The translations under genes were made by a program, and so were the position numbers. Under the pieces are notes generated by a model. That model did not search any database, was not told the DNA's origin, and saw nothing but the letters and a program-made list of their open reading frames with translations. A stretch of DNA of 60,330 bases, filler included, from Sphacelaria rigidula (lineage: Eukaryota), in the NCBI GenBank assembly GCA_964200075.2. It is 10 parts of 10 records of this genome, joined end to end, with 100 filler letters (N's around TTAATTAATTAA, not from the genome) between each part and the next. Parts side by side here need not be neighbours in the genome. Positions count along the whole stretch, not along the records: positions 6,045 to 11,988 come from CAXNAA020023309.1; 9 more parts are not named here. One strand, given 5' to 3'. This document shows, in pieces, positions 6,045 through 50,976 of the stretch (positions are counted from its first letter, which is position 1; each line of letters opens with the position of its first letter).

Positions 6045-6980
6045 TGCATCCCGTACGGTAGGGACCCCGGTCCGGCATTGAGATCGGTCTGTGCATTTTC
6101 GTATCACAGTTTGGAGGGGGGGGGAGGGGGTATACTCATGATCATGCATATCATAGTCATGAGACCGTTGACGGGGCGGCGGGCGGGAGCGAGATACGAC
6201 AGCACGGAAAGCAGGGGGTCGGGGGGGGGGGATCAAGGTCAGAGTTCGCCGTCGTACACCTCTGAAATCCTGAAAAAAAAACGCGCATAGTAACTTCAAG
6301 ACTAGAATGCAAAAACGCCCGCACATGAAACCGCGACAAAAAAAATCCCAGGGAACCAGAGAAACCTGGTTAAAAACTGGCGTGCCAGCCACTTTCGTTG
6401 TGGTATCTTGTCGACGTACCACTGCCGGATACATAAATCGCGTACAAAGGGGCTTGTAAAAGTGCGTCATTTGCCGTGCCGAAACAAGCCTGTGGTTGGT
6501 GTTTGGTGTTGTGCTTGTATTGCTCTTGTTTTGCATCACCTACACAAACATTGTTGGGTGCGTCTGTCACGTGACCACGGCTGGATCCCTGATGGGTCAG
6601 TTCAAGTATGGCAACCGACCAACCAATCCATCAATCCATCAATCAAAAATATATAACCATACGTACATGAGTATGTGCTGCGCCCTGGTGTGTTGTCATC
6701 TCATCTATTCTGGACGTCAGTTTACTTCTTTCGGTATATGTGGGCGCACCAGCCGGGGTCACACAGGAAGAAGGCCAGCACAGGAGTTTTTTTTTTCTTT
6801 TTATTTCTTCAAGTTCTCCGCCTTGCTTCTGCGGTGCTTGTCTTATCTTTCATCACGAGAGGGGTTTGGCACTCCCTCACCCTCGTTGACCATGAAGTCG
6901 TGGTGTACCCTAAACATGTTGGAATCGATCACACCCTGCACAATATGTGTCCAATAGTTGGAATAGAAGAAGAATTATGC

Positions 6981-7413
6981 TGTGGAGACCACGTATGTAT
7001 GAGCGTATATGATGATAATAATAATAATAATAATGATAATTTCCGCAAATCAGCGAGATGAACACCCAAATACACGTGTAAGCCGGAGAAACAGTCCAGT
7101 GACACACACAAGCGGACCCGAAACCTTCAAACTTGTGCAACTGGATCTTGGGCAACCTAGGCAATAGGCTCTACGGTACAAGAGCCCGAAACAATAGGGC
7201 AACCGCATGAACCCTGGTGGAACGTAGCCGATACTACCGTACCACCTCGTCCCCTTCTCCTTGCCTACCATCGGTCACGGCCGCATCCTTGCCTGGATGA
7301 CAAGAGAGAGAATTACGCCTCGCTCTGGAGATCCTTCGGCAGCAGGGTACGACAACGTTCTTCTTCGGGACCCGTAACTCTACTGCCTCACCCGTAGCGA
7401 AGCCTAGTTCACA
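6981..7413 (+). repeat. 5' LTR
   Basis: TG...CA ends; 3' ~340 bp nearly identical to the 3' LTR; contains an (AAT)n tract. Confidence 0.9.
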
Positions 7414-7414
7414 G

Positions 7415-7500
7415 TGGCGTCGACGGTAGGGTTTGAACCTATCCGTGCAGAGCACTTTGACTGGAGCGTGCGGGGCACACTGCCTTACCAATGGCGACAT
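7415..7500 (-). other. Primer-binding site extended into a tRNA-Ser-like sequence
   Basis: Minus strand reads ...GCCATTGGTAAGGC...AGTCAAA GTGCTCTGCAC GG ATAGG TTCAAAC CCTAC CGTCGAC G CCA: D-arm-like hairpin, long variable arm, T-arm, acceptor 3' strand, G discriminator, CCA. Confidence 0.7.
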
Positions 7501-10500
7501 TATCCGAAACAAAGGGAACCAAGGAACGCTTTAGCAGGTGAAACGTATGGGTCATGTATGCACAGTTATTCGAGTCAAGAGGATTGTAGGAACCAGCGAA
7601 ACGCGAAATTAGCCTCCAGTGTGCATTATATATCACCAGCAGAGCTGGTCAAAGAGCGAATCCGCACTCGTCAACCCACCTCGTACCACCATAGTGCAAG
7701 AGGCACGGCAATCTATCAAGCAGACCGACCTCTGAGAACGCGATGACTCGAAATCGCCCTGACAAAATTCTACCCAACCTGCGATTGCACTACTTTGTCA
7801 TAGCCCACCATTTACCAAACGAAAGCAGAGGGCATACTAGACGGTCGTGCCGAGTCTCAGCTCACAAGTTAAGAGGAGTTGCAAACGGCAGATACTTAAT
7901 TTTTTTCACGTCTCAGAGCGCATGCTATGAAGAAAAAGTAACAACTCTCTGGTGAAAAATATCGGAGAGAGCGGTTTTTCTAGTCAGTACAGTAACTCTT
8001 CCGGTAAGGCATCAAAACAGCCCCAGTTGTGACGTGAAAGTACTGACTAGGATAGAGCATAAGCTGAACAAGAGCAACACAGGTCGGAAGAAAAGAGTGC
8101 GGAGTAAAACATGAACAACCTCCGTACTTGGAGTTAGTTCCTGAACAGCCTTTATAACAGCCGTCGAAAAGCGTTACACCAGGCACGGGTCCACAACTGT
8201 TGAGACTCATATCATACTGCTTTTTTCGCAGTACCCCAAGGGATCGGTAACGTTCCATCGTACACATGTGCAACCTGCCGCCAGAATGAACAATATATAT
8301 TTTCAAGCAGTCACTGTTGATTGCTAATCGGAACTGCCCATACTCCCTCTACAAGATCATCCGGTCACATTTTTGTTAGATGTAGCACCTGTATAGATCT
8401 GCATCTTTAAGTAGACGATCACCATTCAACACCGAGGAGGGCAGTTTGCTTGTCATACGATAGCCTCTACAGTGGGATCGTGTGCGAAGTTTTACAAAGA
8501 GAGAGCGAAAGTACCTGATATAATCACGCAGCTCACAGTAAGCAACACAAGTAAAAAAAATGGTGCAGAGCAACCAGCCTTCGTACTCGGAGAGTGTTCC
8601 GCAAGTATCTTTCATAGCCTAACCGTCATGTGTAATCAATGCGAAAACACCGATTAAAATCTCGGACTCCAAAGCTGTCAACACTTCGAAGCATTTTACT
8701 TTCCATGTATCATCGTTAGCGCGGTACCCGAAGGGACCTGTAATGATACACCCAGCTTCGGCCAGAATCCACGTGCCAGCTAGAATAACGTTAGTGCTGA
8801 GCAGGCCCTGACGAAAGATCCACTTCACACCTGCCTATTATCAGCCTAAGGTTAATCCGTTCGCACCGTGCTCCGAGCACGGCGGACATCAAACTAGTCC
8901 CAAGCAGATCTTTGGATCTTAAAAGCGCGGACATATCATCAGTTTCAAATGTCTGATCGTGGCACGCAACTTTTACATGGTCAACGGGGAGTAAGAGAGC
9001 TGTGGTTCAGGTCGCCAATCCCTCCAGCAGGCACGTCCGTATTGCGGGAAACACTCTGTTGGGATACATTGCACTTGCATCAGAGGTCCGAACGGTGAAA
9101 ACGACAAACACAAGCACTGCAGCCGCCGAAAAGAAAAGAAAAGAAAACACTCGTCAAGAGTTGGACAGGCGTTTAAAATGCCTTCACAAGCCGCACATTT
9201 CCGCAGGAACAGAGGCCCAAGTCCTCGATATGTGTGCTAAACACCGGACAATATTTTCGTTTTCACGGCAGGGGTTGGGATGCTGAACGATAAGTGAAGC
9301 TAAATGTTCACTCAAACCGGTTACACAGCCAGTCGACAGACGTCCTACAAGGCCAACCCAAGGGCACAAGCAGTCATCGACAAGTGTGTGTACGAAACGA
9401 AATCCTCAACTGAAGCACCTTGTAAATACGTCGATTCCGTGATGGATCATAAGACGCGTTATGCACTTTCTATCCCGATTCTTAACTAGTCAACCATGAC
9501 GGTGGGACAGATGCTAGTTGACGGAGTTTTAACAATATTTGGCATTCCGCAAAAGTTGACTCTGATCAATCAACGCAAGGAGTTTTAGAATCGAGTGATT
9601 TGCCACATAGGCACACTGCTGCAATAAGGGAAGACCCGCACGACTCCGTTCAGACTTCAAGACAACTCAGTTTCAGAACGGGTACACTCATATCTACACG
9701 CTATGTTGGCAATGCGCAGGTCAATCAAACACGACAACTACGCAGCTATGCGTGCAAATGGCTTTATCTTTTCCGAAGTATCGCCACAAGTATGAAAGTC
9801 AAGTTGGGCAACGATGCACAACAAACATCGATACGCTTGGCTCACTGGAGAAAATACTACCTACAGGAGCAAGCCACGGCGACCAATTTTTGATTGACTT
9901 GCCGACTTTCTCTTGGGGAAAATATTGCCTCTTCCACAGGTTGACGGCCCAGATGTAGCATTACCGTGAAAATCGAATGTTACACCGGTGACAAAGTCGT
10001 GGGACATGGACGAAGCCCAGGGGGGAAAGTGACCTCAACTATATATTCCACCTCAGACTCAGAGGCTACGGTCCATGGGCTGACCTAGAGTATAGTGCGG
10101 ACGAGGTACCCCAATGTCAACATCTCATAGACGCGTACAGGACCAAGCGAGACTGATTAGCGCGCCTCCACCAGACCCGCCGTCTCGTAACAAGAGAAAA
10201 AGAAAACGGGTTAGTGAAACTGTTCGGGAAGCCAAGTTTCCCGTTGGGAACAATGCCCGGAAAAGTGCACTAGCAGGAAATTTCCCGCTACATGCAGACG
10301 CGTTCGGTATAAAGCGAAAGCAAAAAAGGATTGATGCCATGGTCACCGCGACCACAAGGACATCAGCGGTGCAGAGAGACTCGACCCAAAGGTATGAGCT
10401 CTCACCAGCAAAATAGAAGTATTGCTGGCGAGGACAACCGTGGCAATTTTGTAATCTTGGAGTATACCACTCCAGACATACAAATAGCAGCCACCGTTCT

Positions 10501-10961
10501 CTTCTTGTCTCGGTCTGTGTCTCCCTCAGACACGAGTATTTCAATGTCATTCGGTAATCACCGTGGGTTCAGTGTTCAAGCAAAAGGCGGAACGACAACA
10601 CCATCCCATGCGAAAACACAATGTTTTCTACTGAATTGCCCTTAAATCAGCAACTATAAGGGCATCAGAATCTGTACTGATCCCACAGATTTCACAGATG
10701 CCGCGATCAGGTGACCAAGTCACCAACCGCCGACACAAGTATGCTGATTACGTGAGCCTGGATGCGAAGGTCGATAGAATTCACCGTATGGTGTTTACTC
10801 AACACGACAGTATAGAGAATATGACACGTGTAGACACAGGCCAGTCGAATGGCATCATAACACACATATAACGAGGGATGCACGTTATCATTTTCTTCAT
10901 AAATATTCGCCACAGTTCCTCGAATAGAGAGACTTGAGGCGCGTCAAAAGGGGGGGGGTGA

Positions 10962-11364
10962 TGTGGAGACCACATATGTATGAGCGTAATGAACATCCAA
11001 ATAAAAATGTCAGCCGGAGAAACAGTCTCAGGAATGGGATTCGCCAGTGACACACACGAGCGGACCCGAAACCTTCAAACCTGTGCAACTGGATCTTGGG
11101 CAACCTAGGCAGTAGGCTTTCCGGTACAAGAGCCCGAAACAATAGGGCAACCGCATGAACCCTGATGGAACGTAGCCGATACTACCGTACCACCTCGTCC
11201 CCTTCTTCTCCTTGCCCACCATCGGTCACGGCCGCATCCTTGCCTAGGTGACAGGAGAGAGAATTACGCCTCGCTCTGAAGATCCTTCGGCAGCAGGGTA
11301 CGACAACGTTCTTCTTCGGGACCCGTAACTCTACTGCCTCACCCGTAGCGAAGCCTAGTTCACA
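10962..11364 (+). repeat. 3' LTR
   Basis: Direct repeat of 6981-7413, preceded by a PPT. Confidence 0.9.
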
Positions 11365-12239
11365 GTACGGCACAAAGTACAGGAGAATTGAGACTATGTC
11401 GACAACAGTTGCAATAGGCCGATACTTTACGCAGTACATTTTTCTATTGACATTTCACGCATCGGACAGCTCAAGAGCTACCTGAATATTACTTGTTATT
11501 TGTGTACTGATCCGGATCACGAGCTAGCTCATGTGGCCGCTTTTTCCATATTCGCTCCCTACAGTGCTGGACACCGACCACGCGGAGTAGCGTAAAGGTA
11601 GCGCTGTGGCTTCTCAGACCCTGCTGTCACGTAGTTTATGTTGTTGGATAAGGGATCTGAGAGTCCCCTTCGGTGAGTCATTTTGGGCAGCTCATGAGCT
11701 GTCCGACGTGTGCAACATTTGACCGCAACTTGTCCACGGTGTGAAATCGACTAGGGTGACGTAGAGGTTTGCATCCCAGCGGATACAATTCTTCGCGTCG
11801 TTCCTCTCCGAAGCATATGATTTCCATCGTTAAAAAAGTGACGATGTGAGTACAGTTGTGACAAAGATTTAGCAAAAGTAGACGCAGTATGATAACATCG
11901 GGCATGTACAAGCCCTCCGTTTCCCGTCCTCCGACGAAGGCCATGACCGGTCTTGTCGGTACGGCGTGGGGAGGGTCTTTTCGGCGGGNNNNNNNNNNNN
12001 NNNNNNNNNNNNNNNNNNNNNNNNNNNNNNNNTTAATTAATTAANNNNNNNNNNNNNNNNNNNNNNNNNNNNNNNNNNNNNNNNNNNNAAAACATATCAG
12101 TTAGTTGACGTCCCGAACAGGAAAACATTAACGAAAATGCATGCATCCTCCTTGCCCCTACCCCCTGCGCGAGTCTTGGCACCACACCGCAAATTTGGTG
12201 TCATCTCAATACACAGTGTAACACCAACAGATGCAGGGT

Positions 12240-12800
12240 CTCAGAGCATGCGATTCTGTTCATGTCAAAGTTTTTAGGTTGTAGTTCGGATCGGCTGTAC
12301 AACTACTCCTTATCCCTAACGAAACAGTTTGGACGCTGTACGAAACGGTTTATTGATAATATCTACAGGGCACACATTAGAAACGTAAAGAGTCGTGCAC
12401 CGCTAGATATGATCAGGGACGATGGGGATCTGGAGGGTATCTACCCAACAATGATCACCGATGGTATCGGGGGATTAGTATCACTTACAGCGGAACGAGC
12501 TAGGCCAGCGGTACATTTTCCAGGTATGGATTGTGATCCTGATCCATCTTCAGAAAAACGGTGAAGAAAATACGATGAAGGCGAACGCACGGAAATATTC
12601 CTAGACAACCGCCGATTTCCTCACACCAGGGCAACAATGTTGTTGAGGCCGGAACATTGTATGTCACACACCATAGCCAGTTGTGTCGGCACACTTGCAA
12701 AAGCAATGAACACGCATACTTCGTCATCTCAACAGGAAACCTGTCCCGATCGGCGATGGGAAACCAGTAGAAATATAAATTGTTGCGTATAAAACTGAAC
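12240..12800 (+). pseudogene. Penelope-like element reverse transcriptase remnant
   Basis: Ordered degenerate motifs RFIDNI (cf. RYIDD), GIYP, VHFPGMD (cf. VxFLDM), RFPH, TLYVTHHSQLCR (cf. YGxxxSQLxR), with frameshifts. Confidence 0.55.
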
Positions 12801-13157
12801 ATATTCCTTTGACTCGAAACACATATAAATCACAGACTACAAGCCAATTGCACCGCGATTCGAAAACACGAAACACACTCCCTATGGTACACCATGACGA
12901 GAGAGATATGGGCTACAGAATACAGACAAAATGCCGAATAAACGTACGGTAGGAGTGGGTAAGGTAACAACATTTATCCTGCCCATTTGTCGAATCAAAT
13001 CAGAAAGGCTCACCTATTAATAGTGGGTTTTACCAAGGGCCAGTGGAAAGACACATGGTTGCCAACAAATATTTTCATTACGAGTCAAGTCGTTCCCAAC
13101 TAGGTGAGACTGAAAATACCACAACGCTACGCCTTTTCTGTGAATAAACCAAGTGAC

Positions 13158-13561
13158 AGTCAGGCTACGATAGGGGGGGGGGGGGAATTCTGGGCCATTT
13201 TCTTCCACGAAATTCTGGTTGCGATGGTGGTTGATAGTAGCAACGGAAGTCGAAAAAACCCAAGCCACTGTCGTTTGTGGGAAAAAACAAGAGGGGGGGT
13301 GTGGGGGAGGGGGGGGGGGGGGGGGGTATTCTGGGCCATTTTCTTCCACGAAATTCTGGTTGCAATCGTCGTTGATAGTAGCAACGGTAGTTCGAACGCG
13401 CTTGCTTCCGATTTGCAACGCTCACTCATACTGTTTGACATCGCTTTTACCCAAATACAAGTGCACCGCGAGTGAGTGTGTTGGGTCGTGCGACGCACCT
13501 ATGAGCCCATTTCTGCGTGGAATCAAACTCCCCCCCCCCCCCCCGCTATCGTAGCATGACT
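13158..13561. mobile_element. MITE-like element with TIR AGTCA(T/G)GCTACGATAG followed by poly(G)
   Basis: Inverted termini at 13158-13185 and 13530-13561; ~70-bp internal sequence duplicated at 141-bp spacing; same terminus at 54220-54262 and 60167-60189; TSD unresolved. Confidence 0.6.
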
Positions 13562-14571
13562 CGACAATTTATGTATACATTTGCTTTCTTGAATATAATA
13601 TCTCCCGCAGAAGTATGGTGACAAGTAGATGCTAGAGCATTCACCAGTACTGCCGCCCAAGAAGATTGTACTGTTCTCGTGCACCAACATATATGTATAT
13701 ATACATACATGAGTTTCGGCGGCTTTCGCCGCCACACTCAATGGATCGACAGCAAAGATACATGGGCACCGACGATACCCATGCACGTTGCGTAATGGCA
13801 CACGGCACAGTTTGACAAAGCCGTAGCAGCTCATTTGCTGAGCACGTTGTTCGAGGCCTTGCGCAAACTTTTCAGAATACGATGAGAAACGATGATTTGT
13901 GTGAAACGCGCGTCCACCACACACAAAAAGCGTCTGCCCACGTTGAGCTGATGCTGATTCAAATTCGAGAAAAGAAGTGCCGCTGAAGGATTTGTTTCTG
14001 CCCCTCCCATCATGGGAACGTAGACTTCAGCGGCTTCAGTGACTCATGTATCAACTCGCGGCTGTTCATTGTACAGGAGAAACAGGACCATAGCCTCTCT
14101 CCACCGGAGTAGAAACCAACCGCAAACCTTGCGACGAAAAAACACCCACAGAGTCCACCGATCAGACCCGCCGACCCGCGATCCATCGACCAGCGGTAAA
14201 CGCCTACAGCGCATTGCTCCACCACATAATATATCCCCGACCTAGGTAACAGTGGTGGCTAGAGTCTACAGCACCCCCAAAAGCTCTTTTTCTACCGGCA
14301 ATAAGTGACATTAGAGCTTGACAAGCTCAGACATCATGTTGCCCGGTAATACCGTCGTTTTCCGCATAGAATAGCAATCCATCCCTGCCGCTGTTTCTGA
14401 TGACAGCTCCATGCAAGCTCGCCCCATTTCCGAACAACTCGCCGAGAAGATCCAAGACATCGTCCATCATGAACACGTGATCACGCTACTTGAACCACTA
14501 CGAGTTACAAAGCGATAGCTAGCGCCGCTAAATACTAAAATCCTTGCCCAAAACTAGTCTCTCAACTCCAC

Positions 14572-14782
14572 TGTAATGCGTGAGAGGACCGCGTGCTTAG
14601 AGGACCGCATCTTAATTTGAACATCCCTATGGTTGGGATTAGGGTTGGGGTCGGGGGTTAGGGTTATGGTCAGGGGCGTGGTTCCTGCAGGGACTGGCCC
14701 GATTGGTTTCGAAAAACATCGATCCTGGGTTTTTTTAACTACGGCGCGGTCCTCTAAGCACGCGGTCCTCTCACGCATTACA
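14572..14782. mobile_element. 211-bp MITE with TGT...ACA ends (Ginger-like)
   Basis: 37-bp perfect TIR TGTAATGCGTGAGAGGACCGCGTGCTTAGAGGACCGC; 5-bp TSD TCCAC at 14567-14571 and 14783-14787. Confidence 0.85.
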
Positions 14783-16129
14783 TCCACATCGGCAACGAAA
14801 ACCTGAAACGTCAACGAACGTCGAATTCCAAAGCATGCGTGACTAATCGTCTCTCTGACCCGAGACGAGGTACTTTCCAACATACAGAATGCACTCTTTG
14901 TACGGTCAACACCTGCGCAACGAAGTGCAACAGCCAAATGATAAATCATCCCCAAGCTGGGATGGCTCAAGCTTTCAAGACGCCTGAAACGCACCTGGCC
15001 TCTTGCTTATTGAATTTCGTTAAAACGTATGAACCGCATGCCTCTCCGTCGTGAGAGCTTCAAAGCTTCATCTCGCTAATCAATTCATGAAGACAACGCG
15101 AGGACGGTCATGACTCAAACCGTTGTTCAAGCCATGCATAACTACCCAACAACGGCGAACGGACCTCGACCTCCACCGTCATTGATTGCCCGTAGCGGTC
15201 TCCTTTGTAAACTCGAGTTATCGAGCATACCTCCAGAAAACACTGAGATCATCTCACTCGGATTCTGGACTGTTACATATATCCCATCCGTGCATCAACC
15301 GAAATGTAGCAATAATATACGATTGAATTTTCTCAATACTCTTGCAGCCCACCCGCACCGCTCCTTTCGGGAAAATGGACACGCCGTCTACATGCTCCTT
15401 CTGATACAAGCGGAAAACCACCCACGCGCTCGTCCAAACACGTGACAATCCATAAAAGCCACGGTTAAAGATCATTGATGCATGCGCGCATAATTTCTTC
15501 ATCTCCAACCACCGGAAACACTCGCGTATACCTGCTCACATACGACGAACCCACGCATTACGTAGTTACAACTCATTTTTGTGCTAACAGCAGCAATCAC
15601 CATCTGCTAGAGTCAGTACATGTAAACCACCCAAAGATACTCCCACTGTATTTCCGCGCGAATAAAGTCATTCGAGCTTTATTTCATTCAGCATACAGCA
15701 GTATAATGAAAACTGCATTACCCCTTCTCTTCACTAGACACCATGCACATCAGTAACGTTCAAGCGAAAAATCCAGATATATGCATGCCAACATTTCAAC
15801 CAGCACATGCAATACCACCTTATTTGCAGAAGCGTATATCATGCGTGCTAACCAGAGCAGCACAACACACAGATACACCAAACATCCGCATGTACACCGG
15901 CATTCCCCCCAGCCAACGCAGTACGATCACACTCACTCTACCGCCATGCTTCATGCGCAAGAAGCAGCACAAGCATGACCAGAAACGACACCACGGCAAC
16001 CTGCAATCGTCCGCGAAACGATTCAGGAATACCAGTCACAAGCACTCAATCACACCAGCACTTGCTCCTCAACATCACTCAAAACGGCGTTCACCACAGC
16101 ATCTAGCACCTCAGGACATGCCTTCCTTG

Positions 16130-17868
16130 TAGTCCTCCAGTCCGCTCCTGAGAAACAATGGGACTCGAACTACAACTTTGTGCACACCATAGAGTAGCAG
16201 TTCCTCGCGAACACTCGCTCCTTGCACCATGAATGTAGCTACGCCTGGCTCCCCCATTGTGCCGCTCAGCGCGTCACCGAATGGAATTCCACACCGCCAA
16301 ACCAATGTGACAAATCGTTTGCCCCCACAAATGTCTGCGTATTAACGAACGCTCATTCTTCAGTCGTTTATTCAGAGGAAACGAGAGGCAAAGCGGGAAC
16401 AGCCAAGCAGTCCCGCACAGCAACATCTTCTGATGGTATGACATCATGCTCCTGAAGCACCTGACCGTATAGCGGCAGAGACACCTCAATCAACGCTGCC
16501 AAACACGCCAAACCTATCCGTGCAAAAAAGCAGTGCATAAGATCACCCCACCACTACGCAACGCTCGACGTCGCCGTAGGAAAATGTGATCACTAATAGC
16601 ATCACAAGCCTGGAGCTCGTTCTGCGTACCCGCTCCTTGCGAGTCACACGCCCCTGTTGCTTCGATCATGCAAGGAGTGCCCACAGCTACGGCAGGAGCC
16701 GGGGGTGGAGCTGAGACGGTGCAGCAGCGAACGCAACCGAGGCAAACGCAGCGGAAGACGTCGCAACAGCGGCCATCGCCACAGCCGACACTGCCGCAGC
16801 GTTGCCTACAGTCAGCGAGAGCCGGGGGCGGAGCTGGAACGGAGCCAGGACGGAGCTGAGGCGGTGCGGCAGCCAACGCAATCAGAGCAGAAGCAGCGGC
16901 CGACGTCGCAACAGCGGCCATTGCCACAGTCAACACTGCCGCAGCGTCGCGTACAGTCAGCGGGAGTCGGAGATAGAGCTGGGGCGGTGTAGCAGCGACC
17001 GCAATCAAAGCAGACGCAACGGCCGAGGCCGCAACAGCGGCCATCGCCACAGCCGACACTACCGCAGTGTTGCCTGCAGTCAGCGGGAGCCGGGGGTGGA
17101 ACTGGGGCGGTGCAGCAACGAAGACGGCGAACGCCGCCGGAGCAGACGCAGCGGCTGGCGCCGCAACAGCGGCCATCGCCACAGCCGTCACTACCGCAGC
17201 GTCGCGTACAGTCAGCGGGAGCCGGGGGCGTAACTGGGGCAGTCGAGCAGCGAATGCCGCCGGCGCCGCAACAGCGGTCACCGTCACAGCCGACACTGCC
17301 GCAGAGTCGCGCACACCCAACATGAATCAGAAATGGAGCTGGGGCGATGGAGCAGCGAAGGCAGCAACCGCAATCGGCACAACTGCAGCGGCCGGCGTCG
17401 CAGACAGCAAGCATGGTTGCCGCAGCGGAGTGTTCAGCTGGCGGGGGATGAGGACGAAGGAGGGGCGGTGAAGCAGTTGACACAATTTTGGGAGGATGAG
17501 GACGAAGTAGCGACGGTGGAGCAGCCGGTACAGTTGATGGGGGTATCGGGCGGTACTGGGTCGATGGATCCGTGAAGATAGAGGAGACTACCGGCACAGA
17601 TCTACAACAACAACGCGGTGTGACACCGGCGGTCACAAGGTCCATATCGAGAGCATCGCCGCTGGGAGTGTCCGGAGCATTTACAATGCTGGCAGTTGAG
17701 GAGGACATCGCGAAAGCTTTTGCTCAGGGGGACGCTGGTTATCACGACGATGAACTGCCGATAGATTCGACTCGACTTGAGACACCGCAGACGTACACAC
17801 AGGCACATTTCGGATCACACGATGCTATCTGGAAGGCCGCAGAAAGCAAGGTCGGTTTAAGGTCTTGA
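16130..17868 (+). pseudogene. Ty1/Copia pol remnant (integrase-RT linker and start of RT)
   Basis: LETPQTYTQAHFGSHDAIWKAAESK at ~17776-17850 matches the Copia EPxTYxEA...WxxAxxxE motif that precedes RT; upstream sequence is highly decayed and its boundary is uncertain. Confidence 0.5.
16690..17310 (+). repeat. GC-rich minisatellite, ~5 units of 105-145 bp, Ala/Thr-rich when translated
   Basis: Anchor CGCAACAGCGG at 16762, 16907, 17030, 17162, 17267. Confidence 0.85.
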
Positions 17869-18134
17869 CTTTTATGTATTTCTTTTTGCTTGTGTGCAAT
17901 GAACTGGCATTGATTGTCGGTGCTGCTGTATACTGCTTTGAAGAACCACGGGATGTATCTATGATCATGCATGCCATAGTCATAAGACCATTGGCCTCGC
18001 ATCCCTACAAAGCCGGGACGGAGCCCGCCGGGNNNNNNNNNNNNNNNNNNNNNNNNNNNNNNNNNNNNNNNNNNNNTTAATTAATTAANNNNNNNNNNNN
18101 NNNNNNNNNNNNNNNNNNNNNNNNNNNNNNNNGG

Positions 18135-18200
18135 CATCAATTTCAAGTGAAAAAAAGTATGCATGATCCAGAAAGACTAATCTCGCGGTTTAAGGGTTAA
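18135..18200. mobile_element. Terminus of a piggyBac-like MITE (related sequence at ~50460-50610 and ~650-700)
   Basis: Ends ...CTCGCGGTTTAAGGG|TTAA; sequence shared with 50543-50608. Confidence 0.4.
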
Positions 18201-18235
18201 CCCTTAGCTTTTGGGTGTGTACGGGGGGCTATGCG

Positions 18236-18236
18236 G

Positions 18237-18270
<34 letters not shown>

Positions 18271-18335
18271 CTTCACATTGAAAACCGTTCCGATAACTGC
18301 GCGGTACATTTGTACTGGGCATTTGACGCGGTTGA
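18236..18335 (-). mobile_element. 3' end of a non-LTR element with (CAA)n tail; copies at ~24630-24730, ~26560-26665, 58370-58495
   Basis: Shared GCCTGTGACCACGGAAGGC...AATGTGAAGAC followed by (AAC)n. Confidence 0.6.
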
Positions 18336-19747
18336 AGACAAAAATTCCGATATGATAACCTGAATTCAACCATCTTAAAAATGGACGATGATAGTTGAAG
18401 TCACGACCTATAAGATCGGGGTATTCCTTTTCCACCGCACATTTTGGATCGAAAAATATGTGCCAACACACGCCCTTACGGCCACCATTCACCTCCAGAA
18501 CAGTGTTTCTTTTCCCCGCCGCAGGTTCGGAATCCTTGTTATGGTGGGCGAGACAACGCCGTTCATGTGGAAAGGAGGTCGGAGTTCGTTAGGCCGGTGC
18601 TGCGCACATATCATGCCCTATCTTGCTAATGTTTGCACATCACCAGCAGCTGCTCTGCAATCGCGTAATTATCGCTGTTGCAAGCTACAAGCTTCACCAG
18701 CAACGCATGAGCGGGCGTACAGGGCGCAGCCATCCTGTCCCCTGAGCGTTGCACAAAGGCCAAGGTAGACTAATGAACCATGTTAGGCTGCTGCAATCTG
18801 AACAGGTCGAAAGAGAGAATAAGTTAAATCCTTTCAGCGCCCGAGCATCCTGCTATGATCTTCTTCATGTGCAATATCACTATCCTCCAGGGGACTGTCA
18901 GCTGCAAGAGTCAAGACGGGTACTGTAAATACTTCGTCACCAGATCTCAGTGTTCAACAAATACTTCGTTTCAGTCTGAACGATCATATTCGGATCTTTT
19001 GGAGGGGTGACAGTCCACGGCTCCCAAGCGTGCGCGCAGCGCGTGGTGCAATCAGCGCCAACGGCCTCAAATTGGGCCCTGCGAGCACAAATCGGGCGTT
19101 CTCTGTGTACCCCCCGTACCCAACAGTCCTCGGCATTCTTTCGGTTGCTAGGGCTAGGGCTACGGTTCAGCGAAACCTAAACACGTCGTAGAGTGGATTG
19201 ACCGTAAAAATTGAGAATAACGACGTATTTCAAGTCTGAATACGGATCACTTTATTGAACAGTTTGATCGCTAGAATGCGTCATCAGTCATCCGGGCATT
19301 TGTCGTTTTTTGAGCGAACACGGTGCCAGGCAAACAAACGCCTTATCCGGGCGGTCGGCGTGCAAGGGTGGACCCAAATCGAATCCTTCGCAGTCACCAT
19401 GTTCGAGTACAGTGCAAGGATATTCGACCCCCCAAGCGTTTTTAGTGTCACATATTCCCAGTCGTGCACCCTGACATCTCGGGTCGATCATTGTTAGCTT
19501 CAACGCGTTTTTGCCAGAAACACCCACCCACCAGCGAAAGACAGAGACGAGGCACGAGGAACGGTGGCTTGAATTACAAGATTGGCGTGACGAGGCTCGC
19601 AGTAGTTGATGTTCCTACTGCCTTGTATATATGTCATTTTCTGAACTTTTCTCGGACGACGAAGGAAGCATGAGACTGCAACCGTCAGTAAAGAATACAG
19701 CTGAGTACTGCGCTGAGTACTTCTGTACCTGTCTGACCGACGCGAAC

Positions 19748-21403
19748 TCATGAGGTGGTCCAGTACAAGTAGTCATCTCGCTCTAGCTGAGCGGGCACTA
19801 GGAATGCAGCACTGCACATTTCGTCGTCCCAACGCGTTAATGCTGTCGGGGCCACCAACAGTACAGCACGGATAGTGGCCAGAATAGAGAAATCCCCGTC
19901 ATATTGGAATGTACGTGACATTATCCAACACGGTACATGGACATGGAGTCGGCGTACTCGTACGATAGAGGATAGGAAAAAGCACACGAATAAAAAACAA
20001 AAAGAGAAAAAACTGCAAGAGAGGCCGCATCTGTTCCACCAGACACCTCAACCGACACTGCAGTGGTATGTATAAGAACAGTATAATCGTACACAAAATC
20101 AGCACCTTCGTGCTATTAGCAGGTATGCACACGAGGGCGAAATTCACACAATGTAGATCATGGGCACTTGTATCGTACTGTGCCGCGGTGCGATGCACGT
20201 CGCGTGCTGTCTCTGGACCGTTGTACACAGAAAATGAAGCGGCACATTTCTTCGACAACACCATACTTGGGATGGGACTGACTGTCCTGTACTGTCTGTG
20301 CGGAATCCAAACTGATTCGTACAGATTAACATGAGAGTCACAAGGACAGCGGTTAATCAATGAACTTTGATGAATGCTCGGGGTAAAGCATGAAACATGT
20401 ACGCGGCATGTTGTCTTACAGATTATGGAAGACTTGGCTATTGACGGGAGCTGGGACGAACGGGGGTGCAGATTCGGGAAGTGCGATATGCGACGTGCCG
20501 CATGTCACCGACAGCCGATATAATAATCGGAATGAATGTTCTCAGCATTTGCTTCAGAGGTTGTACATCCCAAGCATGATGCATTTTATCGGATTTGGCG
20601 AAGACATTGCGATGCTGTGTCGGCTTCGGGTTGGATGCGATGTCTGCCGTCGGCTACTGAACAGTCAAATGCCATGGCAGGGCACGGGACATACACGACC
20701 TTCGGCATGAAGTTTGACGCTTGTGTGCACTCACTACTCCTTCATGCGGCCTGGTCTGTGACAAGCTAAGTGGATGAAGGCAGCTTGCGCTCACAAGAAG
20801 TGCAGAGGAACAAACGAAAGCAGCAGGTGGCGGGCAAAACAGACAGCCAAGACAATCGGATATCTCATCTTCCACTCACTGTCGAAACTCGCCCGCATCC
20901 TACGACAAACACAGCCTCTGGTATCAAAAGCATACGAGCAGCGTACACTCACACGTGCACGCTGTTGCAGACCCGGTTGGGTAGTACCGTTGTGCTTTCT
21001 GTGGTACGTTATCCCTCAAGAAAAAGACGGAAAAATTGGGCTGTCATCGACTATACTGTTGTGGCGACTGTATACTGTATAAAGTATACCTCCAACCCTT
21101 GACGAAAGCCAAGCTGGCAGACGACGGATAGTACATACTGTCCGTACTTCACACGGGCAGCGATAACATTACACACCACTGCTACTCACGAGTCAGCCCA
21201 GTAATACACCCGTCAGCACTGGCCCAGCTTTTCCTCCTCGCGCGCTGCTCATCAACGAGGACCACTCGGGGGGCCGGTGACTCCGCCTTCCTCCACATTG
21301 ATGTAAGGAACGTGCTTACGCTTGAGAGAGGGGCGATCGCATGCGCTCCATGCTCGTGGTCTGAAGGCCTTTCCAGCGGCGACGGCCGACTCCTTCTCCA
21401 CAT
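19748..21403 (-). CDS. Possible two-exon hypothetical protein (21403-21190, 19842-19748; 102 aa)
   Basis: GTGAGT donor and CAG acceptor are phase-compatible; no recognisable homology. Confidence 0.25.
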
Positions 21404-31713: not shown

Positions 31714-31759
31714 CTGTCCATGCAGTCATGGGGGTAGAGGAGGGGCGGCGGGGGAGGGG

Positions 31760-32060
31760 TACTCATGATCTTGTATGACGTAGTCATACGAATGTTGACC
31801 TCGCATCCCTACAAAGCCGGGACAGAGCACGCCGAGTTTACGCCGTGCCAGGCTCGCGATCAGCCATACAGCGCGAAGCGCCGTGATGTGTTCGGCGAGT
31901 CGCATGGGGGCTGAGCTGCATCCTGCTACAATTGTTTGGCCCGAAGCGTACCGGCTATCTTGCATACGGATGACAGCCTCAAATCAGTTGCTTCATTTTA
32001 TGTCATTGCCACTTCCAGAAACAACCACGGGTTACATACTCTACCTTATGGGCGTCTCAT
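31760..32060 (-). mobile_element. LINE family B 3' fragment; other copies at ~6130, ~17955, ~35720, ~45345, ~48175, 48694, ~57130, ~57270
   Basis: Recurrent 3' end ...GGGATGCGAGGTCAATGG...CATGATCATGAGTA abutting C-rich tracts; homologous to the family A 3' end. Confidence 0.65.
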
Positions 32061-37402: not shown

Positions 37403-39505
37403 CTGGTGGCTTTAGAAACGAACGTGGTTTTTCGATTGTATGCACGTGACGTTTGAGCAATTGCGTTGCAATTGGAGGGGGCTGGTTGTATGCCGGTATT
37501 ATCGATTAACAGGCTAAGGAATCTGTGAGACCCTGCAGTAAATATATATATATATATGGCGAACTTGGCGAATTTTACGGAACATAAAATCGTGTAGTCG
37601 ACAAACTTTGCCGGGGAAAGTTGGGTGAGCAACACCTCGGTCAAGAAGCTTGTGCATTTCTTTTCTGATCATGCGGCGTTCTCATGGTGGGAAACCGCGT
37701 TAATTTGTGGCAAAGGGTGTGCACGCGAGACAACAACCAGCAAAAATATGGGACTCGTGCTTCGCCCCCCCCGAGGGGGTTCAGCGACCACATCGGCGGA
37801 ATGAGTGTCTGAAAACCATATGTAGGGTCTGTAGGAAATGTCAAAGACACGGTATGTGGTCGCGCAGTCACCTTGCATGGTACGCTAGACATGAAGGGCA
37901 AAAAGATAAAGCAGGGCCGCCAAGTCTGCGTACTGCATAAGTAATGACAAGACATTGCACGAAAATATTTGGCAGTCACCTTGCATGGTACGCTAGACAT
38001 GAAGGGCAAAAAGATAGAGCAGGGCAACTACGTACGTCTGCGTGCTGGATAAGTGATGACAAGGCAATCCACGGGAAGATGAGTGGCAGCATGATATCGA
38101 AAAACAAGTTTGAAGCAACTGAACAATGTATTATCCAACTACGGTACCGCGAAGGAACAAGGTATTATCCAACTACGGTACAGGGTGCGTCAAGAAGTCA
38201 ACCTGATCAATAGCAAACCATACAATCGATTACCAGTGTGGGATAAAATGGGGATCCTATTTAGTGGCACCAAGGTAATGACCGTGCTACCAAAATGCTT
38301 TGAAAAAGTATCCACGATTAGCTAAACCAAACCAAATTGCGGACACTCCATAAAAAGGTACCCAGTATTAGCTAAACCAAACCAAATTGCAGACACTCCA
38401 CGCGGGAACATACCGTCATTGGCAAACCGTTCAGTGTTTCCTATGTGTCCTCCCCAACGCAATGACGTTTAGCGCCGGTTCCCTCCTCGGGATGCGACAC
38501 ACTCAGGACAAGAGTGTGGGTGAAACAAGGGCGGAAGTAATAGAGGGCGTGGTTAGTATACGTTGGAAGTCTTGGGGTACATAAAAATATGGCTCGGTTT
38601 TATCCCACGTGATGGAGATCGAAATGTCGTGTGCCGGGCGGTAAATTCGGCGTTTCGGCCTTGCGAGCCAGATAGATGAAACGATTATCAGCGGAATCCT
38701 GCTCAAGCATGATGAGTACAGGCGGCGCAACAGACAAGGCCTGGGCCCTGCAGATAGCCTACACCCGCATGGTCAAAGAAAAACATCGCGAGCGCCAAAC
38801 ACAAATACAAAATTACCAGAACATAAAATGAAAAATAGTGCAGCTCGAAAAGAGCAAGACGACGGCGGCGTAAATGATGAGACAATCAAAATAAAATACA
38901 AAAATTCCAGAACATGAAATGAAAAATAATGCAGGTCGAAAGAGCAAGACGGCGGCGGCGCAAAATTACACAGCACTCAAAATACAATCGAGGGGCTCAA
39001 AAGACAGTTATGGTGGACGCGACACCCGGAGATGCAAACACTATGAGTATGTAAGATGAAAGAAAAGCAAACAAAATCGACATAAAATGGAAGCTTTAGG
39101 GCATGTGAATTCCACAAATCCGCATGGCCACAATAAAAATGCAACCCCGGAAACAAAGTATATACTGATCATGGTGGGTTGTTTTGCAATAAAACTACCA
39201 GGATAATATAGAGAATGTCTAGAACACGATCATTGCTGGTTAGGTACAGCGATGATATTAATTTGGCTGACCAGGTGTAGATCAGGCGAAGGTGATACAA
39301 TGCACGCAACAATGACAAAACAAAAACTGTGCGATCAGATCGGAGCAAGGTTCATCAAGAACATGAGGGCGGAAAATGCCCGTGCACATGGCAACATGCG
39401 ATGTGATAGTGAGCGAGAAAAATGCAGCCGGCAGTAGGCGGTAGAGGCAAAAACACAACAAGCGGGAAAATAACAGCCAACCAGGGTAGCAGAAAGCACG
39501 GTGGA

Positions 39506-39741
39506 AACAGCAGCAGCAGCAGCAACATACAACAACAACAACAGCAGCAGCAGTAATAGGCAACAGCGACAATAGACAACAACAGCAGCAGCAGCAGCAG
39601 ACAGCAACAGCAACAGCAACAGCAACAACAACAACAACCACAACAGCAAGAACAGCAGTAATAGGCAACAGCGACAACAGACAACAGAAAACAACAACAG
39701 CAGCAGCAACAACACAGCAGCAGCAGCAGCAACAACAACAT

Positions 39742-39777
<36 letters not shown>

Positions 39778-39803
39778 CAGCAACAGCAGACAGCAACAAC
39801 AAC
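39506..39803. repeat. Compound (CAG)/(CAA)/(CAGCAA) microsatellite
   Basis: Directly visible. Confidence 0.95.
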
Positions 39804-41779
39804 ACGGCTACACAGCTTCCGCAGCTATCTGGAGCCTGATGCCCCGAAGCGCCCCGACGTAATTGTAGGCCCTCTGGTTCGTTGACTCGTGCAATCTCGT
39901 TCGACCTTTGTGCCTTTTATCAATTGTTTTGGCTAGGTTATTTCACTTTTGCTCCGGACGTCTGCAGTGGCGTGCTGATGAACCATCGCGGATGAGCTTG
40001 TGCATAAAGCCGTTCGTTGGTGGCGCACTGTGCGGGTTGCATGTAACGAAGTGCAATGCGGCGGGTACGGAGCACAGGGCACCCACGGGGCAAAACAAAC
40101 TACATAGCCCACGCTCAACTATTTATGCTCAACGTGCGTATGGTAGATAGACAGAACAAAAGAGTGCGAAGAGCCGAAGCAGCATTCCATCATACTACAC
40201 TGTACATACTCTCATTGTACACTGTACGTGCTCTCCAAACATCCCAGTGACACAAAGTCGTGAACTTCAAAAGCACTGTTTACTAGATGCTGAATTATGT
40301 TGCAGATAAGATACGCTATGGACACTACAATTTGTGAACAGGCACACTACTTACTCTATATAAAAGTAGTATTACTTTTCCTGATCCGACCCACACGCCA
40401 GCAAAACCCTCCACTCCGAAGGTTTGTCGTCGGAGCGTGCCAGTGTTGACTCTACACAAGCAAGGGCTGGACACCATGTCATGGTACGATACTTACCACC
40501 TGGGTAGGAAGATGCCAGTTCAGTGGGCACTGGGGCTAGCAGGCCCAAACACAATAATTAGTATCGAAGCCATCGAGTTCGACATTACCGAGTGTTGAGT
40601 CAGCCACCGCACCAGTGGTCAGGTGTCATGCCATGAGCCGGCTGCAGCATAACATGTGTTGTATGAAGGTCAGCCTTACATTTGTGAAGACAAGAGAATT
40701 CTCTGAGATAGCAGTCCATGATGGCGTAGATGCTCTTGTATTATTGGCGTACAGGCTAGCTTGTGCTTCGCTAGTTGAGATGTATAGTCCAAAACGCTGT
40801 GACCCGAAAGGGGCGGCCAGGTCAATTCAATCAAACAATGTAGTATGACCCATCAGGTACCAAGCATGACAAAGTATGACAAATGGAACCCAGTCGGCTG
40901 GAACATGATCAATAAATCTGTAACATCCCCCTAGCCATATTTATATGGCTACACACTAATGTATTGGAGGACTGGAAGGGCCAGAACAAAAACAACGCCT
41001 GTGCATCATACGCTTGAAAGTAAAACGAGGAAAACCTGCTGAATTACAGTACAGGGGAAAATTCGTTGCAGATCTAATGAAAAGGTGAACCCTGATGAGC
41101 AAGGGAAAAATCCATCCGTTAGGGAAGGAAAAAAATCTATAACGCCCTTTCCAACGGCAGAAACAGCAGACAAGTACGGTCGCTGTCGTTTTCCCGGGAT
41201 CTCAAACTGGAGAACGATCGGCTAGTTAGCATGATCGCGCGTCGACACCCTGGATCAGTCACACTGGATTCTAGGGTAGTGCGGGGCTTAAACCAGGCTA
41301 AAAACAACCTTTCCGCGAACTGATCAATAGTTACAGGAGTGCAGCTTTTAAGGGGTGCTCTTCTGTAACTACCGACACCTGTTCTACTGGAAATAGAGCC
41401 CACGCGCCTTGGCTCACACATGTGCCCGTATATCACCAAATGGGAAACAATCGATAACAAAGCGTCACAAGAAAAAGACAAGGAACGCTCGAAATTCATG
41501 ACTGAAGCGTACGGTAGCAGCAATATATAGTTACATATTTCCTTATTTCACTACCGTATTCCTCTCGCAATGATATCGTGTACCCCATCACACAACAGCC
41601 ATTCGTACACGTTCATGGCTGCCGTCTATTCTTTGGCTCCTCCGTTCCAGCGTGGGGCGCTAAACTTCCAAGCGAGATAGCTGTTTCCAGTCTCCATCTT
41701 CGTATCGTACTCGCCGAAAGAAATTCCCATAATCATACACGTGGTGCTTCAACTCCGCACTGCTGTAGCTTTTCCAGGA

Positions 41780-45100: not shown

Positions 45101-46789
45101 TGACCTCGGTTGTTGTTGAAATATCTCATGGTTCAGAGTTATAGTGAGGTTTGAAACTTGAAATCTGTTCATAGATGTTCATTTATTCATTCATTTTTTG
45201 GAGGGGGAGGGGGTCAGGCATGATTTAACCCTAATGCGGACCCTCATCGTAAGCCTCAAGTGTACGCCAAGATGCCACTATCTTTTACTTCCACAGCAGC
45301 ATTTCGTCTCATCTACATAACCAGGTTCCAAGCGTTCGGTTGTGTGTGCTCATGATCATGCATGCCATAATCAGAATACCTTTGACCTCGTATCCCTACA
45401 AGGCCGGGAGGGAGCACGCCGGGTTTTCGCNNNNNNNNNCCCCCAAGCGCGAAGCGCCGTGGTGTGGTCGGCGAGTCGCATGAAGGGTGAGCTGCACCCT
45501 GCTAAGATTGTTCTGCCCGAAGCGTACTGATTATCTTGCATATGGATGACAGCTACAATGAACTGCTCCACTTTCTGGTATCACCACTTCCAGAGACAGC
45601 CAAGGCTTATACACAGCGTTCGTATGGGCGGGATACATGAGAGACTCTCGGGGTGAAGTGACGACCGAACTCGCAGTCAAACGTTCGCCTATCCCTTTTT
45701 CGGGCTGGAGATGCCGCAGATTTGCCCCGGATCAACCACTGAAGATGTACGTATGTCATGCACGAGTTGCCTTCATATACCGTTCGACCGCCAGGGGGGG
45801 GGGAATCATGTGAGTCTTACTCGCCGATCTTTCCCGCGAAGAACAAATCCCAAGTCAACAGGTCGTCCACCCACCCTTGTGGTCACCGGGTTGAACGGCG
45901 TACAGCAACGTATCAGGGGTCGGGGGGTCACTATAACGCCATTAAGGACTGTTCCCGGATCTTGGAACACAAATGAGACATGCTCACAGTTAATATAGCA
46001 CCGGGTGTCCCCGCCGTTTCCAACTCAGTAGAGTTTGTACCGGTTCAGCGCTACTCGATCCATGGTTGATAGTAGAGAGTTTTGGAAAACGCTTTTTTGT
46101 CATCTCAGAGTGAAAATATCTCAGGATCAGAGTTCGGAGTTGAAAAAAAAAACTCGTCAAAAAAGAATTGAGGGGGTACCACATTTGACGGAGGGGGACA
46201 GGATTTTTCGTTGCACTCTGATTCTGAGATATTTCCTCTGTGAAAGACAAAAAAAAAGCGTTTTCCGAAACTCTCTGATTAGTTGATTTGAGTGGGAACA
46301 AAGATATTCGGATACTTGGAGAGGTTGACAGTCCACAGTGCTTCTACTCGTCTGGCGTGCGCAGAACGCCAGTTTGTCCAACTCCGCACCACAGACTCGA
46401 GGTCTGCCAACTTGCACTTTGACCAGGGCCCCGAGTGTTTCATGTCTTGGGTACCCTTGATGCAAACAGTACCGTCTGTTGACCAACACGATACGACTCA
46501 CGCAGCACCTGCTCCGAGTCGATAGCCCGTCAACCAAAAGCAGTGCAGCTTTTCCTTGATCATTACACCCGGCGCAGTAGCTAGCACAAGTGGAGAAACA
46601 ACACACACTCCACCTCAGCAATTCCGGTTCATATTAAGGACGCCAACCTAGTGGAGGGTTCTTCAACAATCCTCCACCGGAATCGTACATGGATGCATGC
46701 TGTTTCCATATATATTTTACATGAAACCCATGCGTGTCCCTTGCTACTTTCAAAAGGTGGGATGTGCCCAGCCTCCAGGATCCTATTGT

Positions 46790-48661: not shown

Positions 48662-50976
48662 CCCTCCCCCCCCCCCCTCCCCCCAAAACCAGCGAGGTCA
48701 ATGGTCTTATGACTATGGCAAGCATGATCATGAGTACACCCCCCCCCTCCCCCCAAAACCAGCCCTAAAACTGCCATAAAGGAAATGGCCATATAGTGTT
48801 TGATCGCTGATCTTACACTTCATGAAGCGCCTCACATGGGCGACACCGGTGAAACTGATCTCAAGCGTGGGAGTTCCCAGCTGCTTGGTGCGGTCGGCTT
48901 CTGTCGTTTTGATTCGCCTGAAGATTTTGTCTCCCCAGACCCGCCACTTTTCTGGAGGGAGGGGTCCATTGCGGCATCACTCTGATAGCACACAATGCAG
49001 CGGCAGCTATATCGTGCACCAAATGTGAACCGTGGCATGTATCATCCTGGCGGGCGCCCCCATCTTGAGGTGAAAAGTCGCGGCCCGGAGGTATAACGAG
49101 TACTGGAAGCCGTAAGATCGAAAGCTTGTGTGTTCGATACCTGGGAGGTGCGTTTGTTTCGTTTTTCTGACGAGTATCTGATCCCGTCGTCAGAATCGTG
49201 CGGGTCGTGAGCCAGCAAGAAGGCATTTGTTTGTCGATAGGTCGACGCGGTGCGGGATTTTGCAATGATCGGACGAATCGTTCGCCGGTTCGAATCACTA
49301 GATCCACGAATTCTAAGGCCTGACGAGTCGAACGAGAGAATGCATTTGATCGCGGGAAAAAAACATCCCTCACGCAATTTTTTGTGCTAATTCACGTGCC
49401 TGCGGTACGCGTGCCTTGGGTGCAACGCTGAGACCAAAGCCTGAGGATTGATTCGTACGGCACAAATCAACTACATTGAAAGCAAGTATTTTTTAGATCT
49501 ATCATTATTCGTCCGACCCTTTGGATTTTGCTAATCCAATTCGCCTTATCCCCCCCCCCCACAAAAAAAATATACGCAAGGCGTGTACCCGGAAAGAGAG
49601 AGGGAGGGAGAGATGGGTTGGCATCTGTTGAGACGACGGGTCACATCCGCCCGGAGGACGAGGAGGGGGGTGGGGGGCGGGGGGATTGTGCCCAAGGTCA
49701 TGGTGCGAAGCAGCGTATATCGTGCCACTTGCGTCTCTAGTTGGGTTTGAAAGTTAGGATGGAGAGGTGACACCTCAGGCAGCGCCCCCCCCTCAGGTGG
49801 ACTGAGATGAACAAATGCCACATGTGGGATTCGAAGCAGCTCTTTTCTCGCTACCCAAGACTCGTTTTTTTTTTCATGTGGATGTCGGGCATCTATGTTG
49901 AACGCTGTTCCGGAGAACCCCTGACCGGTTTTGACCCTGCAGTCTATTGCGTGCAGAGTCAGTGCGTATGCTGCATGTTTTTGTTGAATACAACGTCAAA
50001 AAAAAGTCAGCGTGCCATCGCTCTCCACTGAACACAATCTCTTGCATGCTGCTGACTGATGTCTCTGCTCAGTGTTCGACATCAACACTACAGGCAAGCG
50101 TGAGAGATTTGCTGGCAACACATAAGGGGTCAGGCGGCCGACACAGACCACGAGCAGAAAAAAGAAAAAGTACGTTATTTGTGCTCGTGCTATCTAAGTT
50201 GGAAATGTCGTGGCCAGAATGAGAAATACGGCTCGATAGCGAAGTAGTCCATCTGTAGGGGGAGGTAACAAGTCGATCATTTTGATACCCGTGATTGGTC
50301 AGAATGGTCACTCCGCTCCTCTCGGGCCTCGTTCCTGGCTTATAATTTTCCGTGGGAAACTTCCAAACACACATGGTTGACTTGATGAGCATTTCGGGTG
50401 GTCTGCGAACAGGCCTACACCCCCTATCGAAAACCACCCCCGCGCCCCCTGGAAACCCCCCGGATGTCCCTGGACTGTCAGCTTGTGATACTGTTCCGAG
50501 GCGATGCTCGCTGTCTATAATGATTGGATGATCTGTTGAATTGGCATCAATCTCACGTGAAAAAAAATATGCATGATCGAGTTGGTCCACCCTCGCGGTT
50601 TAAGCGTTGAATGGGTGCTGTTTCATGGAGGAACTACCTAAAACCCTTGTAAATAGCGTCTTCTTCCATGTCTGGTACGCGTCGTGTGTCGCTTGCAACA
50701 TCGTGGGTAAAGTCGCCGAAGAGATCTAAGCCAATGGCTCCGACATATCCAACGGTCTCCGTCGCCGCTATTGGAAGATCGTTCAAGATTGAGCTTGAAT
50801 CCAAAATGCGGAGAAACGTAAAGTTGCAGTATCCGCCAGACTTGGAGACATTTCTTGACTCCCATCAATAGAAATGCTGTGGGTGAATGAATTTTCCTCT
50901 GCCGGTCATGGCCTGGTTGAATTCGTCGTTTTCAATCAGACGAAGGAGGAAGAGCACGTGGGGGGGGGGAGGGGGC

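Follow-up and report, generated by a model that had tools for sequence, protein, structure and literature searches.

In textbook reverse transcription, 18 nt of the primer tRNA are copied before a methylated base stops the enzyme, and an overrun is thought to ruin the product. In the case of Ty1 and Ty3, the extra contacts with the primer tRNA are short, discontinuous boxes, and Ty1 reportedly has an 'extended PBS'. tRNA sequences also occur in aberrant retroviral DNA, where they are located at circle junctions, and a 'strong-stop DNA plus primer' model is the proposed origin of tRNA-derived SINEs. While plus-strand strong-stop DNA is made, the primer is still joined to the minus-strand DNA, and its copying ends after the first 18 nt at m1A58, with m5Um54 as a second stop; a product that extends further would have a 3' end without a complement after strand transfer, and failure is the expected outcome (PMC8599865). 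Among LTR elements with small-RNA-derived parts, the closest described ones appear to be the TRIMp3 elements, namely Helenus, with a tRNA-like part, and Cassandra and Ajax, with 5S-like parts. These are non-autonomous LTR elements of 311-1263 bp, in which the small-RNA part is situated within the LTRs in sense orientation and is presumed to be a Pol III promoter; no complementarity of the tRNA-like part to the element's own primer site was found in that study, and primer sites of bivalve Helenus reportedly use tRNA-Ser (Kojima 2024, PMC10886601). Tf1, finally, self-primes with the 5' end of its own transcript (PMC5445492).

The locus described here lies in a 60,330-nt stretch of Sphacelaria rigidula DNA, filler included (assembly GCA_964200075.2; hereafter the window), within the part derived from record CAXNAA020023309.1. 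Positions 6978-11364 represent an old copy of a non-autonomous LTR retrotransposon of ~4.4 kb that occurs in many copies and is LARD/TRIM-like in its organization. A direct-repeat search, self-BLAST and alignments of the LTRs delimit a 5' LTR of 436 bp (6978..7413, plus strand) and a 3' LTR (10959..11364, plus strand), both bounded by TG...CA. Identity between the two LTRs amounts to 89.9% over an alignment of 387 columns, gaps included, and to 94-96% within ungapped blocks; an (ATA)n-rich insertion of ~50 nt near 7008-7058 distinguishes the 5' LTR from the 3' LTR. The terminal CA of the 5' LTR (7412-7413) is followed by a single spacer base, G (7414), and by the TGG (7415-7417) that opens an 18-nt primer binding site (7415..7432, plus strand). 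This site is the complement of positions 59-76, including CCA, of a tRNA-Ser-type tRNA, and occurs once in the window with up to three mismatches allowed. At the opposite end of the element, a polypurine tract of AAAA and nine G (10946..10958, plus strand), identified from the sequence and the alignment of the LTR starts, adjoins the 3' LTR.

The internal region (7505..10945, plus strand), about 3.5 kb in length, has no coding capacity, the longest stop-free frame being 147 aa. A Pfam scan covered 48 of the 52 listed frames of at least 40 aa on both strands and matched none of them to a retroelement family, and a protein search with the frame spanning the tRNA-like stretch (7408-7746) returned no match. 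Because the interior carries no retroelement protein domain, the element is non-autonomous rather than a full retrotransposon. An earlier note on this DNA had called it an LTR retrotransposon, a designation that holds for the two LTRs, the primer site and the polypurine tract and has to be narrowed with respect to coding. No target-site duplication of 4-6 bp flanks the element (AATTA precedes 6978 and GTACG follows 11364), a lack that may stem from the age of the copy, through decay or LTR-LTR exchange. A tandem-repeat search of the element was negative, and the plus-strand leader shows no notable fold (z +0.11). Self-comparison and pattern searches of the whole window revealed no second copy, and neither the element nor its tRNA 3' end had a match in collections of viral contigs and genome contigs.

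Several further features were observed elsewhere in the window. Paired 44-base N runs recur every ~6044 bases (5945-5988/6001-6044, 11989-12032/12045-12088 and so on to 54289-54332/54345-54388) as ten strictly regular pairs, a spacing that resembles masking applied to the window more than gaps in the assembly; three short N runs (45431-45439, 52298-52307 and 55376-55385), by contrast, resemble real gaps. Degenerate direct repeats, four or five in number and spaced 105-145 nt apart, form a G+C-rich (58%) array at 16692-17349 that contains long stop-free frames on both strands, including a frame at 16812-17723 (minus strand) without a Pfam match. A long trinucleotide microsatellite is located at 39282-39916, with minus-strand stop-free frames rich in C, L, A and V. 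Dispersed repeats occur at 50972-51151 and 56834-57013, and at 31753-32039, 45340-45615 and 57264-57535; the first two are separated by 5862 bases and may represent the LTR pair of a further element. A search of the window placed a tRNA-Ser-type primer site on none of these dispersed repeat families. A 165-aa stop-free frame at 51594-52091 (minus strand) resembles by eye the tail of a non-LTR retrotransposon reverse transcriptase, a likeness that Pfam left unsupported, returning only the unrelated DUF2441 below threshold (E 0.0029).

As in a canonical 18-nt primer site, TGG is situated here one base past the LTR and is the complement of the tRNA CCA end. Unlike a canonical site, the complement continues past 18 nt and stays in the tRNA register for ~87 nt, so that 7415..7504 (minus strand) constitutes a decayed antisense copy of a nearly whole tRNA-Ser with CCA, as identified by a covariance model and an anchored profile test of its 5' half. 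Read on the minus strand from the tRNA 3' end, the copy begins with CCA (7417-7415), which starts one base after the 5' LTR, followed by a G discriminator (G73, 7418), the acceptor 3' strand CGTCGAC (7425-7419) and a T arm with the loop TTCAAAC (7442-7426), in which the B box GGTTCAAACCC is intact. The variable-arm hairpin GTGCTCTGCAC (7455-7445) is an exact eukaryote-type tRNA-Ser arm. All of these parts had been named in the earlier note, and all are present where it placed them.

Beyond the variable arm, the place of the anticodon arm is taken by an unrecognisable middle of 26 nt (7481-7456), against 19 nt expected, which includes a hairpin, AGTGTGC-CCC-GCACGCT (7481-7465), with a 7-bp stem and a 3-nt loop. 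It is followed by the D-arm-like GCCATTGGTAAGGC (7495-7482), in which the pattern GCC...GG...GGC provides a 3-bp D stem and a GG in the loop; both the hairpin and this D-arm/A-box-like segment agree with what the earlier note had reported. Compared with 30 tRNA-Ser genes, the D loop and A-box region has a 2-nt deletion and mismatches, but its GCC and TGG parts remain, at a tRNA-like distance from the intact B box. Positions 8-9 are represented by TC (7497-7496), and the covariance-model alignment places a weak acceptor 5' strand, GATAATG, at 7504-7498, which forms five of the seven acceptor pairs with the 3' strand, two of them G-U. CpG decay as the cause of the weak 5' acceptor strand was considered and set aside, the CpG observed/expected ratio being 0.95 in the window and the element alike. 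The hairpin at 7478-7468 was also considered as a second copy of the variable arm arising by template jump; its match of 10/12 is at chance level, being equalled in 251 of 2000 shuffles and 207 of 1947 genomic controls.

The identity of the copied tRNA was evaluated against metagenome tRNA-Ser loci, which are not the host's own genes. A metagenome scan for a pattern built on the window's own variable arm and T loop, with 20 bases specified, gave at least 126 matches in at least 124 loci. ARAGORN-called tRNA-Ser genes hold 108 of the 126 matches listed (103 GCT, 4 TGA and 1 AGA); the other 18 are mostly cut by contig ends or intron-bearing, and at least two look unrelated. Judged from these sequences, the combined variable-arm and T-loop signature is specific for tRNA-Ser. 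None of the 126 matches listed carries CCA at the tRNA 3' end, and no copy of the element is among them. Meanwhile, the acceptor stem and 3' end of the stretch were matched by no fetched tRNA-Ser locus or prokaryote genome.

A covariance model of 30 distinct metagenome tRNA-Ser genes, aligned to a class II cloverleaf and run with filters off, matches 7504-7418 (minus strand) with 31.4 bits (rough E 8e-8), a score with some circularity where the variable arm and T loop are concerned, since the model genes were picked by the window-derived pattern. The match extends end to end over model positions 1-82, leaves 18 nt unaligned at the anticodon arm only, and compares with 11.1 bits for the next-best match in the 60-kb window. 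All 30 genes share the variable arm of the stretch exactly, but this arm had served to select them. For the 5' half, an anchored test that avoids this circularity scored the 60-nt segment adjoining the variable arm on its upstream side, with random 60-nt segments of the window as controls, against a tRNA-Ser 5' profile. Only 8 of 2918 controls scored as well over columns 1-46, none of 584 over columns 1-28, and 6 of 582 over the D arm alone. The 5' acceptor strand, which the earlier note had regarded as not recognisable, is faintly so in its five pairs; with positions 8-9 it was equalled by 102 of 586 controls and is not significant alone. Furthermore, the stretch is absent from the matches of a window-wide nhmmer search (E up to 100) with the 5' half alone, whether columns 1-28 or 1-46 were used; the likeness of this half is modest, and it would not be found on its own. 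The earlier note had left room for a similarity ending after ~18-20 nt. Instead, the likeness to tRNA-Ser clearly reaches through the variable arm, corresponding to ~41 nt of tRNA plus CCA, and its continuation to the D arm and the tRNA 5' end has moderate support.

The earlier note had raised the prospect of a self-encoded primer, in which internal boxes would drive Pol III transcription of the antisense strand and so supply the element's own CCA-ended primer. The B box GGTTCAAACCC, the A-box remnants at a tRNA-like distance from it and the existence of LTR elements with small-RNA-derived Pol III promoters, such as Cassandra, Helenus and Ajax (PMC10886601), agree with this idea; an intact B box alone, however, is to be expected of any T-arm copy, and the tRNA-like part of Helenus is sense, located in the LTR and shows no complementarity to the primer site (PMC10886601). 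ARAGORN calls no tRNA at default settings on the window or with -ps90, and Rfam gives no match at gathering scores, nor at E up to 10 on 7380-7560. Only with -ps70 does ARAGORN report a pseudo 'tRNA-Gly(ccc)' on the complement of 7415-7504, in which the odd hairpin is read as an anticodon arm. No anticodon arm of 5 bp with a 7-nt loop exists in the stretch, and the D-loop deletion and the incomplete acceptor stem likewise weigh against a working unit. Simultaneously, the minus-strand fold is no better than that of shuffles (z -0.24), and no run of at least four T, as a terminator would require, occurs on the minus strand for 766 nt past the CCA. An encoded CCA, moreover, blocks eukaryotic tRNase Z. 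On these grounds 7415-7504 (minus strand) is most likely not a working tRNA gene and would make no primer of its own, and the Pol III reading is highly improbable. Among the public runs listed for the stretch none was RNA, and runs presumed to be RNA gave no cover over 7431-7493; neither result weighs for or against expression. Eukaryote tRNA genes are not known to encode CCA, and the encoded CCA abutting the LTR consequently points to a mature tRNA that was reverse-transcribed.

The tRNA-like stretch is not confined to the window copy, a restriction that the earlier note had named as counting against its reading, and is present in public sequencing runs from three studies. Contigs of four public runs were placed on 7200-7800 at a likeness of at least 80%, with 72-840 contigs per run; the evidence across copies consists of assembled contigs rather than whole aligned copies, and the differences given below are the best-supported ones. 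The LTR is very repetitive, with a summed word depth of up to 40,000 compared with ~25-35 for single contigs. In two of the runs, X2 and X4, 35 and 37 contigs, respectively, follow the LTR up to 7413 and then continue in unrelated DNA, the pattern that solo or 3' LTRs would give. In addition, contigs of both runs with 32-61 differences extend from 7285-7390 to 7571-7707 without large gaps, so that copies diverged by 13-17% carry the LTR end, the tRNA-like stretch and the leader in one piece. The segment 7442-7514 is covered by 9-13 contigs in each of these two runs, and most other copies contain ~45 nt of unbroken tRNA-Ser-like complement, comprising the T arm and the variable arm.

Most of the covering contigs differ from the window copy at 7442, 7443, 7474 and 7501. 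The change at 7442 restores the fifth pair of the T stem, that at 7443 gives the junction after the variable arm seen in 29 of the 30 tRNA-Ser genes, and that at 7501 restores the acceptor pair 4-69; the change at 7474 is neutral. Because the differences at 7442, 7443 and 7501 restore tRNA features, the window copy represents a decayed form of something more tRNA-like. Eight X2 contigs form a separate variant, which is read from one consensus with an agreement of 0.85. In its 30-nt continuation these contigs diverge right after 7425 and differ at 7426, 7427, 7428, 7429 and 7431, five positions within nt 12-17 of the 18-nt primer site, and agreement resumes from nt 18. Beyond the primer site the only differences are at 7442 and 7443, and these contigs share them with most other copies. 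The boundary of this variation at nt 18 coincides with the usual stop of reverse transcriptase at m1A58.

Word depth, which is not copy number, amounts to ~500-700 over 7431-7514, compared with ~2800 over 7410-7430 and 1745-2640 over 7515-7556. One or two contigs each join 7424/7425 to 7515/7516, 7425 to 7538, and 7439 to 7517, joins that may reflect either true absence or divergence of the letters between. Many relatives may lack the 7431-7514 stretch or be diverged in it. Farther into the leader, at 7683-7724 and 7767-7800, the summed contig word depth jumps to LTR-like values of 11,000-20,000; parts of the element interior are high-copy repeats, perhaps shared with other families or with nested inserts.

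Collinearity in antisense, a start at the post-transcriptional CCA and the coincidence of the first 18 nt with the primer site together indicate that the stretch was copied from a mature tRNA by reverse transcriptase. Comparison with Ty1 and Ty3 leads in the same direction. The element RNA resembles theirs in being complementary to more than the tRNA 3' end, but the additional complementarity consists of one contiguous, collinear tRNA copy rather than of separate boxes, which indicates copying and not convergent pairing. Probably, then, this is an old, non-autonomous, tRNA-Ser-primed LTR element whose primer tRNA was captured by read-through and is now an inherited, decaying leader, and not a tRNA gene. 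In an ancestor, reverse transcriptase would have passed the 18-nt stop on the primer during the synthesis of plus-strand strong-stop DNA and continued copying the mature, CCA-tailed tRNA across the T arm, the variable arm and the D arm to about its 5' end, with the anticodon arm garbled. The over-long product would then have been resolved into an integrated DNA copy by a non-homologous step and amplified, after which the tRNA complement would have been passed down as ordinary leader sequence, decaying, while only the first 11-18 nt would still function in priming and be replaced in each cycle by a copy of the tRNA that primes it. Such a capture would need a rare resolution step, as over-extended strong-stop DNA is expected to fail. 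The anticodon-arm and D-loop regions of tRNA-Ser are heavily modified, and the defects of the copy lie in these regions, a correspondence that is not counted as evidence. Read-through capture had been among the origins suggested in the earlier note, and it fits a copy that is antisense, contiguous with the primer site, begins at CCA and keeps the tRNA register to about position 1.

The same arrangement could have been produced by a secondary DNA event, in which a tRNA-Ser retro-pseudogene or a tRNA-derived SINE inserted or recombined beside the primer site and the element was amplified later. tRNA-derived repeats are common in eukaryote genomes, and some contigs skip 7425-7515; the insertion of a SINE into TRIMs is, moreover, the origin proposed for Helenus (PMC10886601). 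The position of the copy weighs against it: the CCA sits exactly at the required start of the primer site, one base past the LTR and in the priming orientation, with the first 18 nt doubling as primer site and tRNA 3' end. Inspection by eye found no poly(A), LINE-type tail or flanking duplication around 7415-7504. This origin is accordingly quite improbable.

A further possibility concerns not the origin of the copy, which would again be reverse transcription of the primer, but its retention. The extension may be kept by selection as a working, extra-long primer site, either through a 40-45-nt duplex between primer and template, in line with the extended primer annealing that the earlier note had offered as a possible reading, or as a complementary partner, at strand transfer, for strong-stop DNA extending beyond position 58; such a site could work with a primer tRNA that has hardly any m1A58 or none. 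The unbroken complement to the T arm and variable arm in most other contigs, and the survival of the stretch in contigs 13-17% diverged from the window copy, are in line with this proposal, as is the reported extended site of Ty1; retroviral genomes also keep complementarity to the second reverse transcriptase stop at position 54 (PMC8599865). Against it, the private changes of the window copy break a T-stem pair and an acceptor pair, the depth over the stretch is below that of its flanks, and some contigs skip the stretch altogether. Furthermore, in the eight X2 contigs the T-stem strand inside the primer site no longer matches its partner, the T-stem 5' strand kept in the extension. A selected extra-long site is thus unlikely, although it retains appreciable weight. 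A broader form of the proposal, in which selection keeps the near-whole tRNA complement, is unlikely as well: the register of the plus-strand stop and strand transfer would have moved from 18 to ~45 nt or more, for a tRNA-Ser without an efficient m1A58 stop, or, less likely, an antisense B-box unit would feed primer-like RNA.

For read-through capture followed by passive inheritance, the eight X2 contigs are informative in another respect. Their changes within the 18-nt site fit a renewal of these 18 nt from the primer while the rest is inherited, and variation within 18 nt is likewise expected at a canonical primer site from re-copying (PMC8599865). The mismatch that results between the renewed T-stem strand and its inherited partner argues, as far as one consensus goes, that the extension is a passenger and not a maintained structure.

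The element thus differs from each of the described systems. It fails the TRIMp3 description in that the tRNA part lies outside the LTR, is antisense, is itself the primer site and bears CCA, in an element of ~4.4 kb; the tRNA-Ser model finds nothing in its LTRs. As at circle junctions and in the strong-stop model of SINE origin, a primer tRNA is joined to U5 as DNA, the minus strand here reading tRNA-CCA and then the U5 complement. However, circle junctions are dead ends and SINEs are free-standing, whereas the present tRNA copy is contained in a complete two-LTR element and occurs in many copies. With Tf1 it shares the property of an LTR element that does not rely on a standard tRNA 3' end alone (PMC5445492); unlike in Tf1, nothing here suggests that element RNA or antisense RNA serves as the primer. 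In the full-text literature searched, a scope that left out most subscription journals and older retrovirus papers, no description of a contiguous, near-whole antisense primer tRNA beside an LTR was found.

The family appears to be a natural record that reverse transcriptase can copy a mature tRNA almost completely in vivo and that an over-long primer copy can be fixed and then spread. The contigs that vary inside the 18-nt site would show the renewed and the inherited parts of a primer-derived sequence within one family. Copies of this type would also be a source of CCA-bearing, tRNA-like pseudo-hits in eukaryote genomes. If the long complement were functional, the family would represent a natural LTR element with a near-whole tRNA complement as its selected primer site.
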